Assembly: GCA_963771465.1 (NCBI GenBank)
Contig: CAVYTU010000013.1
Span: forward strand, 192,001-256,000
Length of the DNA: 64,000 bases
Reading direction: 5' to 3'
Source: an uncultured delta proteobacterium
GTDB lineage: Bacteria > Desulfobacterota > Binatia > UBA9968
Part shown: in pieces, positions 9,474-13,565 of the stretch
Numbering within the stretch: position 1 is the stretch's first letter
How the letters are laid out: every line of letters starts with the position of its first letter
Made by a program: the position numbers and the translations under genes
The notes under the pieces: generated by a model
Seen by the model: only the letters and a program-made list of their open reading frames with translations
Told to the model about the DNA's origin: nothing
The model's database searches: none

Positions 9474-11249
9474 ATGGCAAGGCGAACCAACCAATCTAAA
9501 GCAAGTATGCCGGCGCTCGCCAAGGCAACCACCGGTATCGCCGGGTTCGACGAAATAACCGGCGGCGGTTTGCCGCGCGGCCGGACTTCGCTTGTTGCCG
9601 GCAGCGCCGGCGCCGGTAAAACTCTTTTCGGCATGGAATTTATTTATCGTGGCGCGACGCAGTTCGGCGAGCCGGGCGTGTTCATGGCCTTCGAGGAGAA
9701 TGAAACCGAGTTGGCCGAGAACGTCGCCAGCCTCGGCTTTGATCTCGACGCGTCGATCAAACGCAATCAGATCATGGTCGATTTTGTCCGGGTCGAGCGC
9801 AGCGAGATCGAAGAGACCGGCGAATACGATCTCGAAGGTTTGTTTATCCGCCTGGGCCACGCCATCGAGAAAGTGAAAGCCAAGCGCGTCGTGCTCGACA
9901 CCCTCGAGGCGCTGTTCGCAGCCTTGCCTAATGAAGGCATCTTGCGCGCCGAGATGCGCCGATTGTTTCGCTGGCTCAAAGAGCGCGGCGTCACCGCCGT
10001 CATCACCGCCGAACGCGGCAGCGGCGCGCTCACGCGCCACGGTTTGGAAGAATACGTTTCGGACTGTGTAATTTTGCTCGACCATCGAGTGATCGAACAA
10101 ATGTCGACCCGGCGCATGCGCGTGGTGAAATATCGCGGCTCGGCGCACGGCACCAATGAATATCCGTTTTTGATCGACACCCAGGGACTATCGGTGCTGC
10201 CGGTCACGTCGCTCGGTTTAAATCACGATGCTCCCAACGAGCGCATCTCTTCTGGTATCGCCGCGCTCGATGCCATGCTCGACGGGCGAGGTTACTACCG
10301 GGGTGGCAGCGTGCTGGTATCGGGCACGCCCGGCGCGGGCAAGAGTTCGCTGTCGGCGCACTTCATCGCTGCCGCCTGCGCGCGCGGCGAACGCTGTATG
10401 TATTTTGCCTTCGAAGAGTCGGAGCGCCAGATCGTGCGCAACATGCGCTCAATCGGCATCGATCTCGGCCGTTGGCTAGAAAGCGGCAGGTTGCGCTTTC
10501 ACGCGGCCCGGCCGCAATTGCAGGGATTGGAGTCCCATCTGGCGCTTATGCTTAAGCAGATCAGCGATTTCGATCCGGCGGTGGTGGTGGTCGATCCGAT
10601 GACCAATCTCACCGAGGTCGGCAGCCCGGCGGAAGCCAAAACGATGCTCGTGCGCCTGGTGGATTTTCTCAAATCGCGGCGCATCACAACGCTGTTTGTG
10701 AGTCTGACCACGGACCAGCAGAATCCTGAGCAGACCGAAGTCGGCATCTCGTCTTTGATGGACACCTGGCTTTTGTTGCGTAATCTGGAAACCAATGGTG
10801 AACGCAATCGCGGCCTCTACGTTTTAAAATCGCGCGGCATGCCGCACTCCAATCAGATTCGCGAATTCACTTTGACCGATCACGGCGCGCAATTAAGAGA
10901 AATCTATACGGGAGTCGCGGGCGTCTTGACCGGCACCGCGCGCATCGCGCAGGAGGCGCGCGAGCGCGCTGAAATACTGGCGCGCCAACAGGAGAACGAG
11001 CGCAAACGGCGCGAACTCCAAGGCAAACGCCAAGCGATGGAAGCGCAAATCACGGCGCTGCGGGCCGCTTTTGCCGCTGAGTCCGCGGAGCTCGAGAAAG
11101 TTGTCAACGATACGCGGAGTGCTGATACTCTCATGACTGACACGCGCGCAACTCTCGCTAGTTTGCGCGGTGGCGACGCCAATTCGAAGTCCCGCAACAA
11201 GCGAAAAGGAGCCGATCGTGGCAGTAATAAAGCGAACTCGCGCAAATAG
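9474..11249 (+). CDS. kaiC: Circadian clock protein KaiC homolog (double ATPase) with C-terminal coiled coil
   Basis: Walker A GSAGAGKT and GTPGAGKS, catalytic FEE pairs, [23 protein letters not shown] (SS at the phosphosites), KSRGMPHS; probable start at ATG 9474 or 9507. Confidence 0.95.
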
Positions 11250-11547
11250 CGACGCCGAGGACCCGCCGGCTAAGCTCTGGCGGCTGCGCCTCTATGTTGC
11301 CGGGCAAAGCCCCAAGTGCTTGGCCGCCTTTGCCAATCTGAAAAAGATCTGCGAAGAGCATCTCGCAGGTGAGTATGAAATTGAAATAATCGATCTGCTC
11401 GAGCATCCGCACCTGGCGCGCGGCGACCAAATCCTGGCGATTCCAACCCTGGTGCGCAAACTTCCGGCACCCATGCGCAAAATCATCGGCGATCTGTCCA
11501 ATACCGAGCGCGTGCTCGTCGGATTGGATTTGCGGCCCGCGGGCTAG
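11218..11547 (+). CDS. kaiB: KaiB homolog 1
   Basis: [11 protein letters not shown]...ICEEHL...[41 protein letters not shown] start after AAGGAG, overlapping the kaiC end. Confidence 0.95.
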
Positions 11548-11597
11548 CGAGTTCGTTCAAGACGTAGGAAGAGATTCCAATAACCGGAAGGGATCAA

Positions 11598-11939
11598 ATG
11601 GCAAAACCAAAACGTCAAACCGCAAGGGAAAAGCCCGGCAGTCCAGACGGCCAAATTTACCTGTTCAAGCTGTGCATCAGCGGCATGACGCCGCGCTCGC
11701 GCCAAGCGGTGGTGAATATCAAGCGTATCTGCGAGGAATACCTGGCCGGCCAATACGAACTCGAGATCATCGATCTTTACCAGCAACCGGAGCTCGCCGC
11801 GCGCCACCAGATTATTGCCACGCCCACATTGCTACGGAACTTGCCGCAGCCGCAGCGACAAATGTTTGGCGATCTCACCGATACCAAAGCGACTTTACGC
11901 CGCCTTGGCATCGCGATCAAAGACGAGCTGCCCACATGA
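11598..11939 (+). CDS. kaiB: KaiB homolog 2 (divergent)
   Basis: [13 protein letters not shown]...ICEEYL...[29 protein letters not shown]...FGDLT. Confidence 0.9.
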
Positions 11940-13565
11940 CGGCGCCGCAGACCAGCCACGATGAGCTGCTCGAGGAGAACCAGGACCTCCAAGCGCGTCT
12001 CGAAGAAGCGGAAGAATTACTGCACGCCATCCGCTCCGGCAATCTCGACGCGCTGCTGCTGGATGGTCAACAGGGCCCTCAGGTCTACACTCTGCAAGGC
12101 GCCGATCAACCCTATCGCGTCTATGTGGAAACCATGAATGAAGGCGCGGTGACGCTGTCAAACGACGGCACGATACTTTACGCCAACCACCAATTCGCCG
12201 AGTTCGTTGGCGAAGGCCTTGAGCAAACCGTCGGTAAATCGTTTCGCGATTTTATTACCGGCGCCGACGACGAGGCCTTCGCCACGCTGGTGCGCGAGAT
12301 CGGCGGCGGCAGCCGCAGGGCTGAAATCACGCTAACCAATCACACCGGCGGGCTCCTTCCGGTCGGGCTTTCGGCGCGGCAAATGGAGCATGGCGGCGAC
12401 CGATTTATTTGTCTTGTGGTGACGGATTTGAGCGGCCAAAGGCTCCAGGAACAATTGCGCGAAGCCGACCGGCACAAGGATGAGTTCCTGGCGATGTTGG
12501 GTCATGAGCTGAGAAATCCCCTGGCGATTATGCACAATGTGCTGCAAGTTCTGCGCAAAAAATATGGGCGCGGATGGATCGGGCGAAATGCGCGGCATGA
12601 TTGAAGAGCAGGTGCGCCATATGGGGCGGCTGATCGACGATTTGCTCGACATATCGCGCGTCACCACGGGCAAGATTCGCCTGGAATCAACCCGTTTCGA
12701 CCTCGTCAAAGTTGTCGCCGACACCGTGCAAAGCTACCGCGACAGTCTTGAAGGCAACGGTTTGACGCTCTCGCTCGAATTGCCAAACCGTCCGTTATTC
12801 GTCCAAGGCGACAAAACCCGCATCGCCCAGGTGATCGGCAATTTGCTGCATAATGCCAGCAAGTTTACCGACAGCGGCGGCAAGGTGACGGTAGCGTTGA
12901 GCGCAGATCCTGGCGTCAATACCGCGTCGATCCGAGTGCGCGATACCGGTATCGGTGTAGACGGCGAAACTTTGCGGCGCGTGTTCGATACTTTCGCCCA
13001 GGCGGACCGCAGCATGGCGCGCAGCCGCGGCGGTCTTGGTTTGGGGTTGGCGCTCGTCAAAGGGCTGGTCGAGCTGCATGGCGGCACAGTGGCGGCGGCG
13101 AGCGACGGGCCGGGACAGGGTTCGGAATTCATCATTCACCTACCGATCGCAGGAGCGCTGTCGGAGGCACCGAGCGAAGAGACCGCAACGGTTGGCCCAA
13201 CGCGCTCTTTCCGTATTCTAGTAATTGAAGATAACCAGGCCGGCGCCTTGAGCATGCAGATGTTGTTGAAACATCTGGGCCATGTCGCGGAAGTCGCCTA
13301 TAACGGCATCGACGGTCTTGCTGCCGCGCAGCGTTTCAAGCCCGATGTGGTGCTCTGCGATATCGGCTTGCCGGGCCTCGACGGCTATCAAATCGCTCAG
13401 CGCTTGCGCGCCAACCAAGAGTTGCGCCAAAGTTTTCTCATCGCTCTCAGCGGCTACGGTCAGGAGGAGGATAAACAGCGCGCCCTGGGGGCAGGATTCG
13501 ATATCCACTGCATCAAACCGCTAAACATCGAACTGCTCGAAAAGTATCTGTCGGAACTGAGTTAA
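11936..13565 (+). CDS. Coiled-coil-PAS-HisKA-HATPase-REC hybrid histidine kinase, frameshift at ~12567
   Basis: ATGA overlap with kaiB2; PAS ([10 protein letters not shown]...YAN) and HELRNPL, then a second frame with [21 protein letters not shown] and REC. Confidence 0.9.

Follow-up and report, generated by a model that had tools for sequence, protein, structure and literature searches.

The subject of this analysis is a kai locus on the plus strand of a 64,000-nucleotide stretch of contig CAVYTU010000013.1 (positions 192,001 to 256,000; the whole stretch is called the window below), from an uncultured delta proteobacterium of the Binatia. Between positions 9474 and 13565, the listing of open reading frames (ORFs) and Pfam give, in this order, kaiC, two unlike kaiB genes (kaiB1 and kaiB2) and a gene for a protein with PAS, HisKA, HATPase and receiver domains, which bears out the gene order proposed in an earlier note made from the letters of the DNA. 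Among natural fold-switching proteins, KaiB has been studied best, and the cyanobacterial clock is presumed to descend from KaiBC hourglass timers. The locus very likely belongs to the KaiC2 type of timer; its KaiC-proximal copy, KaiB1, is a candidate for a timer protein that rests in the ground state, and its kinase-proximal copy, KaiB2, is probably biased towards the fold-switched, thioredoxin-like state. The kaiC–kaiB–kaiB–PAS layout recurs across many phyla, and the window is not unique in having it.

The genes from kaiC to the kinase form one transcription unit with terminator-like hairpins on both flanks (Table 1). A scan of the window returned 13 terminator-like sites against 6.8 expected by chance, and the upstream hairpin is weak on its own. 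The Pfam scan found no KaiA domain among the 45 ORFs of the window, as the same note had held, and the stop codon of kaiB2 overlaps the ATG of the kinase gene as ATGA (11936–11939), which is the coupling that it had pointed out. The homologies of the window proteins have E-values of 1e-23 to 1e-202, which excludes chance matches.

KaiC has both ATPase rings, as judged from two PF06745 stretches (367.8 bits), two Walker A motifs (GSAGAGKT, residues 43–50, and GTPGAGKS, residues 284–291) and two EE pairs (FEE at 73–75 and 313–315). The serine pair expected at the phosphosites is S426/S427, within GISSLMD, and aligns to S413/S414 of the KaiC of Rhodobacter sphaeroides (KaiC-RS). The closest solved relatives are the R. 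sphaeroides entries 8dba, 8fwi and 8db3, and the match to 8dba (677 bits) extends over residues 15–568, the C-terminal extension included, whereas cyanobacterial KaiCs score 330–390 bits and their alignments end near residue 505. Likewise, in NCBIfam the protein passes the broad KaiC model NF006799 (735 bits; cut-off 408) and falls below the cyanobacterial equivalog TIGR02655 (343.5 bits; cut-off 546.25). On these scores and the 8dba match, it is a candidate KaiC of the KaiA-independent, Rhodobacter type suggested in the earlier note. The long C-terminal coiled coil claimed there stands in part: a tail of approximately 90 residues, rich in Ala, Arg and Glu, aligns to that of 8dba, but a heptad test, too crude for a coil packed by Ala and Arg, showed no signal (985 of 2000 shuffles did at least as well), so that the coiled coil is predicted solely by homology to KaiC-RS. 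For the kaiC2 subgroup, it is reported that approximately 50 extra C-terminal residues form a coiled-coil dodecamer, that two serines are phosphorylated by KaiA-independent autophosphorylation in an hourglass driven by the ATP/ADP ratio, and that KaiB binds the CI ring in its fold-switched form and speeds the ATPase (10.1101/2022.11.28.518275).

Both KaiBs match PF07689 (KaiB1, 93.9 bits; KaiB2, 80.9 bits; cut-off 27), and both remain below the cyanobacterial KaiB equivalogs NF006798/TIGR02654 (98/93 and 67/67 bits against cut-offs of 110/145). The characterised protein to which KaiB1 is nearest is the KaiB of R. sphaeroides (KaiB-RS; 111.9 bits to 8fwj_M). The probable start of kaiB1 is the GTG at 11218, with a Shine-Dalgarno sequence, AAGGAG, at 11204–11209 and an overlap of 32 nucleotides with the 3' end of kaiC; the first in-frame GTG, at 11170 (ORF 11170–11547), was rejected because relatives align only from residue 4–5 of the shorter form. 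KaiB1 aligns without gaps to the KaiB of T. elongatus (2qke) at an offset of 13, and its G102 and D104 are thus the equivalents of G89 and D91; with V101, they provide the Gly/Asp pair and hydrophobic residue looked for in the C-terminal strand. At the same offset, KaiB2 has R102 and G104, with R101 beside them. The difference between the two proteins at these positions is therefore as the earlier note had read it. KaiB1 is also the more conserved of the two in all of 13 comparisons of the window with related loci (L001, L003–L011 and L013–L015), with 67–85% identity against 56–78%. Of 167 candidates from a search with KaiB2 of a set of 5.8 billion proteins, 163 reached E <= 1e-5; among the matches listed, 120 of 120 homologues have an xRLG-type C-terminus or a close variant of it, and the few that are named come from Candidatus Binatia and Nitrospira. 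By this sequence comparison, KaiB2 is a family and no degenerate copy.

Following the idea of AF-Cluster, AlphaFold2 was given a subfamily-specific alignment for each KaiB (alignment A1, of 51 rows, for KaiB2; A2, of 40 rows, for KaiB1). The KaiB2 model consists of a strand (21–27), a helix (32–48), a strand (53–59), a helix (64–69), two strands (72–74 and 79–81) and a helix (96–103); this order is that of the fold-switched state, and the mean predicted local distance difference test score (pLDDT) is 70.3. When the model was compared with the PDB by Foldseek, the top nine matches were all fold-switched or KaiC-bound KaiBs (among them 8fwj_M, 4kun, 5jyt, 5jwo, 5jwq and 5jwr) over 82–107 columns, against just 57–65 columns for ground-state crystals; thioredoxins and the N-terminal domain of SasA (1t4y and 6x61_J) rank after these. 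The KaiB1 model has the ground-state order, with helices at 66–69, 75–79 and 86–94 and a C-terminal strand at 100–107 (mean pLDDT 59.5). Its top 17 matches are all ground-state KaiB crystals (82–96 columns; root-mean-square deviation 2.4–3.4), and fold-switched entries align over 52–57 columns. The two models thus differ in the manner that the earlier note had proposed, with modest confidence.

There is a second line of evidence for KaiB2 from mutations in KaiB-RS, which, by nuclear magnetic resonance (NMR), is reported to be 89% in the ground state and 11% fold-switched, and of which the triple mutant I68R/V83D/N84R raises the fold-switched share from 11% to 86% (PMC10808063). In 8fwj_M, I, V and N stand at indices 70, 85 and 86, which served as a three-point check of the numbering, and I68, V83 and N84 correspond to positions 86, 101 and 102 of the window KaiBs. 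At these positions, KaiB1 has M, V and G and KaiB2 has Q, R and R. Because R101 and R102 are the equivalents of V83 and N84, KaiB2 is charged at both of the C-terminal sites where a change of charge favoured the fold switch. The same source describes pockets of the KaiB family predicted for either state, and a paralogue, KaiB-TV4, that is stably fold-switched by NMR (PMC10808063). KaiB1, which belongs to a conserved clade (see below), is nearest to KaiB-RS and is modelled in the ground state, could accordingly be the timer copy envisaged in the earlier note, and the model and the Arg-Arg pair together suggest that KaiB2 is pre-switched.

Related loci were collected by one scan of genome contigs with KaiB2-specific patterns (including E[VI]IDLYQQ) and the 51-protein alignment A1 of KaiB2-type proteins. 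It matched 289 stretches, 151 of which encode a relative; the best 80 were kept, and their genes were classed by local tblastn with the five window proteins. This sample is biased, and the ratio of single to double kaiB applies just to loci in which a YQQ-type KaiB is present, Rhodobacter-type single-KaiB operons lying outside it. The closest loci (69–78% identity) are from metagenome-assembled genomes (MAGs) labelled delta proteobacterium or Candidatus Binatia, and the next closest (57–69%) from Nitrospira or Nitrospirota. There are 45 loci with kaiC upstream and two kaiB genes (L024, with the order kaiB–kaiC–kaiB, and L002, whose first kaiB is frameshifted, are included), 26 with kaiC upstream and one kaiB, and one, L026, with kaiC upstream and three; kaiC was not seen in six loci with one kaiB and two loci with two, mostly cut by a contig end. 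Both L024 and L026, in which the three kaiB genes stand in a row, are Planctomycetota MAGs. In L012, from a Nitrospira MAG, a KaiB2-type gene and a PAS-GAF-HisKA_3 kinase gene (L012:7851-11290) are preceded by 8 kb of sequence that has no N runs and contains neither kaiC nor kaiB1; the KaiB2–kinase pair can apparently move without the timer.

A tree of 130 KaiB sequences from the 80 loci and the window was built by quick IQ-TREE from 102 kept columns; 68 of its 127 inner branches are unresolved, and only supported groupings are used here. With KaiB1 of the window included, 47 of the 48 KaiC-proximal KaiBs form one clade together with the middle copy of L026 (Shimodaira–Hasegawa-like approximate likelihood ratio test, SH-aLRT, 98). 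The exception is the long-branched copy of L024 that lies upstream of kaiC. All kinase-proximal and single copies fall outside this clade. Window KaiB2 belongs to a clade of 16 rows (15 kinase-proximal copies and that of L012; SH-aLRT 99; stem 0.92), which is referred to below as the RRLG clade; it is a Binatia/Nitrospira clade and contains a Binatia group of five rows (SH-aLRT 97). In loci with several KaiBs, the YQQ motif is present in 49 of 49 last, PAS-adjacent copies and in none of 48 first copies; the selection by patterns forces its presence in each locus and leaves its position free. Both G102 and D104 are kept by 41 of the 48 first copies (seven have other states) and by 30 of the 32 single copies (two have other states). 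Among the 49 last copies, 15 end in RRLG or similar, all of them in the clade of window KaiB2, five end in xVLG or VIMG and constitute a sister clade from Planctomycetota and other MAGs, and seven have other states. The reverse of the window arrangement is seen in L028, L029 and L042 (Burkholderiaceae, Polynucleobacter), where the first kaiB has lost Gly/Asp (QRIG, AQIS and AQMG) and the kinase-proximal KaiB keeps VGLD.

The other constant of these loci is the gene that comes last. The order of kaiC, kaiB and a gene for a coiled coil plus PAS is found in the window and in 79 of the 80 related loci: in these 79, a homologue of the first 170–200 residues of the kinase follows the last kaiB, and L021 ends before the next gene. 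When aligned (A3), 77 such N-terminal modules have a mean column identity of 47%, with the consensus ...EAEETL.AIR.GEVDALVV...FTL.GAD.PYR...M.EGA.TL..DG.ILY.N.... Of the 79 downstream proteins, 35 were scanned with Pfam, and all 35 have the N-terminal PAS. What follows it varies: 24 are histidine kinases (HisKA in 11; HisKA_3 in 11, all 10 loci of the Nitrospira group included; HWE or HisKA_2 in two), four contain HD_5 (HD-GYP type), three are GGDEF-EAL proteins, two are sigma-54 activators and two have PAS only. The same type of PAS is common elsewhere (of 8000 proteins scored, 1190 reach E <= 1e-20, and some of these bear the name CheB/CheR fusion), so the module is not exclusive to Kai loci. 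The ATGA overlap is present in nine of the 20 loci with a defined start, and in 10 of the 18 single-KaiB loci with a defined start the gap between kaiB and the PAS gene is -1 to 10 nucleotides. A complex prediction for residues 1–185 of the kinase with residues 15–113 of KaiB2, run without controls, scored 0.05 against a mark of 0.32 and weighs neither way. A contact of KaiB2 with the PAS module is putative, and we would hold it only tentatively, at somewhat less than an even chance. It would have a precedent in KidA, a PAS-GGDEF-EAL protein whose N-terminal PAS is reported to bind fold-switched KaiB directly and fast, and wild-type KaiB slowly (PMC9478674).

Several observations weigh against a pre-switched KaiB2 that serves the kinase. 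The rule implied in the earlier note, by which the residues at G89/D91 predict the fold, does not transfer: KaiB-RS reads VLVNLK, with N and K at these positions, and is nevertheless reported to be 89% in the ground state (PMC10808063), so that reasoning from this single motif is unsafe. Both AlphaFold2 models are of modest confidence, and predictions of this kind, from subfamily alignments of fold switchers, are disputed in published critiques. KaiB2 is no nearer than KaiB1 to the KaiBs that are stable in the fold-switched state (8ubh, 49.8 against 49.9 bits; 4kun, 49.4 against 57.3 bits). Both G102 and D104 are kept in 22 of the 49 last copies and both are lost in only 20; a pre-switched state is therefore no general trait of second KaiBs, the motif having been lost in certain lineages only. 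No fusion of KaiB2 to a kinase was found, 175 longer-protein candidates having given one match, P0241, although such a blank is weak evidence. P0241 (239 residues) was itself rejected as a fusion: a KaiB of the KaiC-proximal type is joined in it to half of a YQQ-type KaiB, the first half, after which the sequence runs out of frame, and most likely it arose as an artefact from a tandem kaiB pair, through read-through or a frameshift. The adjacency of kaiB to the PAS gene may simply be inherited gene order, the single-KaiB operons being alike in this respect, and the adaptor role given to KaiB2 in the earlier note, which is drawn only from gene order and the start/stop overlap, both shared with those operons, is weak or unsupported. 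Finally, the kinase of the window is split inside HisKA into two overlapping ORFs of different frames.

Table 1. Features of the kai operon of the window and of its flanks.
Feature	Position	Strand	Description
Terminator-like hairpin	9305-9324	+	3' of the PspC-domain gene; parts that gene from kaiC
kaiC	9474..11249	+	KaiC2/Rhodobacter type (candidate), 591 aa; CI and CII ATPase domains, S426/S427 phosphosites, tail
kaiB1	11218..11547	+	109 aa from GTG 11218; PF07689
kaiB2	11598..11939	+	113 aa, kinase-proximal paralogue, ends TLRRLGI; PF07689
Kinase 5' piece	11936..12604	+	coiled-coil-like N-terminal stretch, PAS (residues 60-166), H-box half of HisKA (GHELRNPL)
Frameshift site	12566..12568	+	one surplus base in or beside the GGG run, compared with intact relatives
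Kinase 3' piece	12569..13565	+	+1 frame; second HisKA helix, HATPase_c, receiver domain
Terminator-like hairpin and T run	13589..13622 (hairpin 13589-13612)	+	9-pair stem with 6 GC pairs, then TTTTTAAATAA; transcription unit ends

The claim of a PAS hybrid kinase stands as regards the domains, since PAS, HisKA, HATPase_c and receiver domains were all found, but not as regards an intact gene, these being spread over two ORFs with one surplus base. By Pfam, the 5' piece has PAS_9, PAS_4, PAS and profile positions 2–29 of HisKA, and the ORF in the other frame (12537–13565) has HisKA positions 37–66, HATPase_c (93.6 bits) and Response_reg (68 bits). Intact kinases in relatives are 542–551 residues long. 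Four of them (P0121–P0124; 542–543 residues, 75–87% identical to the 5' piece) read ...LRKKYGADGS... or ...KKFGGADAS... at the break, and three-frame translation with alignment to these four shows that the window would match them with a single base removed at TATGGGCGCGG; an A6 run at 12557–12562 was discarded as the site, the alignment placing the surplus base at the GGG of 12566–12568. In L001, L003 and L004, the two halves share one frame, with full HisKA domains by Pfam. The 3' piece is 97.9% identical to P0122 over 332 residues; the 5' PAS piece is only approximately 83–88% identical to it, and the adjacent KaiB2 has a 98% identical relative (P0004). On these comparisons, the PAS region of the kinase may be a strain-variable or recombined segment.

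We consider the frameshift likely to be an error of assembly or consensus. A consensus error is the likelier because the break lies where relatives differ in length, and an assembly error is likelier than decay because relatives carry intact kinases and two other genes of the window are split. One of these is a second hybrid kinase on the minus strand (663–1877 and 1480–3108; PAS_10, three PAS stretches, HisKA, HATPase and REC); its break, inside the HisKA loop, corresponds in relative position to that of the Kai-linked kinase, and a CheB-CheR fusion gene (3126–5132, minus strand) adjoins it. The other encodes a TctC-like solute receptor (61148–62174, plus strand; frames 61148–61858 and 61737–62174), the third broken gene in 64 kb; three such genes suggest an error-prone assembly. 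The alternative is that the output arm is decaying, the frameshift being real and leaving a PAS-only stub of 222 residues, a dead catalytic piece and, here, a KaiB2 without a working partner. The position of the break inside HisKA would accord with this, as would the fact that no 100% identical intact kinase is present among the matches listed, the best being 87%. It is nonetheless unlikely in view of the two further split genes, the fragmented kaiC in seven of the related loci (L002, L003, L005, L011, L026, L041 and L073), where breaks are common in some of the assemblies, the location in a length-variable loop (GADGS versus GGADAS) at which a mixed-strain consensus slips easily, and the near-identity of the C-terminal piece to that of an intact relative, which is not what decay would predict.

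From the observed homologies, gene order, clade structure, residue changes and model topologies, the following mechanism is proposed, in which all activities, the fold preferences in solution and any contact of KaiB2 with PAS or KaiC are putative. The locus would encode a KaiBC hourglass of the Rhodobacter (KaiC2) type that runs without KaiA and whose KaiB has been duplicated and subfunctionalised, KaiB2 sitting at the interface of KaiC-CI and PAS; we put this a little below an even chance. By homology with KaiC-RS, KaiC would autophosphorylate S426/S427 without KaiA, its long C-terminal tail holding the A-loop region open, and its state would track the ATP/ADP ratio. KaiB1 would rest in the ground state, slowly visit the thioredoxin-like fold and bind the CI ring, and, once bound, would speed ATP hydrolysis and dephosphorylation of KaiC, a slow step gated by the fold switch. 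In Binatia and Nitrospira, where Arg-Arg-Leu-Gly replaces the hydrophobic/Gly-Asp strand motif, KaiB2 would be mainly or always fold-switched, and would be a standing, binding-competent KaiB between KaiC-CI and the downstream coiled-coil and PAS module. The activity of the kinase, and phosphotransfer via its own receiver domain, would then follow the state of KaiC and skip the slow delay of the fold switch. In single-KaiB operons, one YQQ-type KaiB with Gly/Asp would do both jobs; after duplication, the KaiC-proximal copy would have evolved slowly under a two-fold constraint and the kinase-proximal copy faster, dropping the ground state in some lineages. Duplication and subfunctionalisation fit the data.

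Two further alternatives concern KaiB2 itself. It might act on KaiC only, as a fast competitor for CI sites or a seed of KaiB1 binding that alters how long or how sharp the dephosphorylation phase is; the position of its gene next to that of the kinase would then be inherited from an ancestral kaiC–kaiB–PAS order. That 26 single-KaiB loci with kaiC have the same kaiB–PAS adjacency is in favour of this, as is the absence of a fused form among the 175 candidates mentioned above and the report that KaiB-RS binds CI fold-switched and accelerates the ATPase (10.1101/2022.11.28.518275). However, L012 keeps a KaiB2-type gene and kinase with no kaiC nearby, the ATGA overlap is conserved across Binatia and Nitrospira loci, and KidA is a reported precedent for PAS domains that read fold-switched KaiB (PMC9478674), so that an action on KaiC alone is improbable. 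The other possibility, that both KaiBs are metamorphic and differ in equilibrium or rate, would provide two delays on one KaiC and make the difference between the models an artefact of the alignments. The pLDDT is indeed low in the switching halves of both models (54–61 in KaiB1 and 63–72 in KaiB2), KaiB-RS is reported to populate both states, at 89% and 11% (PMC10808063), and the published doubts noted above apply to predictions of this type. Yet the Arg-Arg of KaiB2 occupies the exact sites whose change of charge flipped KaiB-RS in that report, and the RRLG clade, with its stem of 0.92, has evolved faster, as is expected if a two-fold constraint has been lifted; two metamorphic KaiBs are therefore quite improbable.

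The locus can be compared with several known systems. It resembles the R. sphaeroides KaiBC timer (8dba, 8fwi and 8fwj) in its KaiC2-type KaiC, SS phosphosites, long C-terminal tail and operon without kaiA, and it shares with R. sphaeroides and Rhodopseudomonas palustris the order kaiC, kaiB and PAS histidine kinase, KaiB1 being the window protein closest to KaiB-RS. It differs from R. sphaeroides in the second, divergent kaiB between kaiB1 and the kinase, in the Gly/Asp of KaiB1 where KaiB-RS has Asn/Lys, and in its host, which is of a Binatia-like lineage and no purple phototroph. This gene order is already in the literature for both R. palustris and R. sphaeroides (PMC4794148), and PAS kinases are reported beside both kaiBC clusters of R. 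rubrum (PMC10931921). The locus shares with cyanobacterial SasA the association of a thioredoxin-like unit of the KaiB fold with a HisKA/HATPase kinase, and Foldseek also matched the KaiB2 model to the N-terminal domain of SasA. The SasA arrangement, a KaiB-like domain fused to the kinase, is not found here: the two are separate genes joined by the ATGA overlap, the kinase has its own PAS input and receiver domain, and KaiB2 belongs to the KaiB family as a true paralogue (51% identity with KaiB-RS when aligned by Foldseek), with only a weak match to the SasA-type NCBIfam model NF006800 (31.4 bits; cut-off 342). In CikA, a pseudo-receiver binds fold-switched KaiB. The likeness to KidA of S. elongatus, a multi-PAS GGDEF-EAL protein, is in the GGDEF-EAL outputs found 3' of kaiB in three of the 35 loci scanned, and binding in the window would be by analogy only. 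KaiB-TV4 (8UBH) and Legionella KaiB (4KUN), of the thioredoxin-like state, are both among the matches of the KaiB2 model, but KaiB2 has no specific sequence kinship with them (49–50 bits) and is encoded in tandem with a copy of the ground-state type, so that its fold-switched state would be of independent origin.

The KaiC2 timer, the kaiC–kaiB–PAS/histidine kinase order and KaiB paralogues stable in the fold-switched state are all already in print. In a literature search that covered few subscription journals, no published description was found of a ground-state-type KaiB in tandem with one of the pre-switched type, of the spread of this tandem over many phyla, or of the constant PAS head with varied outputs; RRLG-type KaiBs may already be predicted as fold-switched in the supplementary tree of PMC10808063.

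The neighbours of the operon in the window include a PspC-domain protein, an SDR-DUF2171 fusion, a CBS-pair protein, small DUF3175 and DUF6496 proteins, a trypsin-like peptidase and several large hybrid kinases. They are compatible with a stress or signalling neighbourhood, and nothing ties them to the Kai operon; the gating of a surrounding stress programme, put forward in the earlier note, is conjectural. Directly upstream of kaiC is the gene for the PspC-domain protein, which also has a zinc ribbon (8967–9263, plus strand). A dense phosphorelay cluster (17933–27456, plus strand) lies 4 kb from the Kai operon. It comprises a hybrid kinase of 2113 residues, in which 11 HAMP and 10 HAMP_2 stretches accompany GAF, HisKA, HATPase and three receivers, and, after it, a REC-HisKA_2 kinase and then one of the architecture REC-PAS-HisKA-HATPase-REC. 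No photosynthesis genes were found by Pfam among the 45 ORFs of the window. The Binatia phylum is reported to have many bacteriochlorophyll synthesis genes and no reaction centre (PMC8262859), and a non-phototrophic host is plausible but not settled.

A ground-state-type KaiB beside a fast-evolving and apparently pre-switched paralogue is a natural paired comparison for the residues that set the fold equilibrium. These are proteins of approximately 110 residues, easy to express, and the pair could show what the slow switch is for. A more speculative generalisation, which we regard as doubtful at present, is that the coiled-coil and PAS module serves generally to read fold-switched KaiB and plugs KaiC2 timers into interchangeable outputs, and that an old kaiB duplication left a metamorphic timer and a partner of this reading module, the partner being without a ground state in Binatia and Nitrospira. 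If this is true, the interchangeable outputs would be histidine kinases of four dimerization and histidine phosphotransfer (DHp) types, sigma-54 activators, GGDEF-EAL proteins and HD-GYP proteins, and a metamorphic protein would have been resolved in nature into two neighbouring copies, one with two states and the other with one. The constant PAS head with its varied outputs is, in any case, a testable candidate for how non-cyanobacterial Kai timers signal to the cell and, as the lineages concerned include nitrite oxidisers (Nitrospira) as well as Binatia, it is metabolic timing in non-phototrophs that is at stake.

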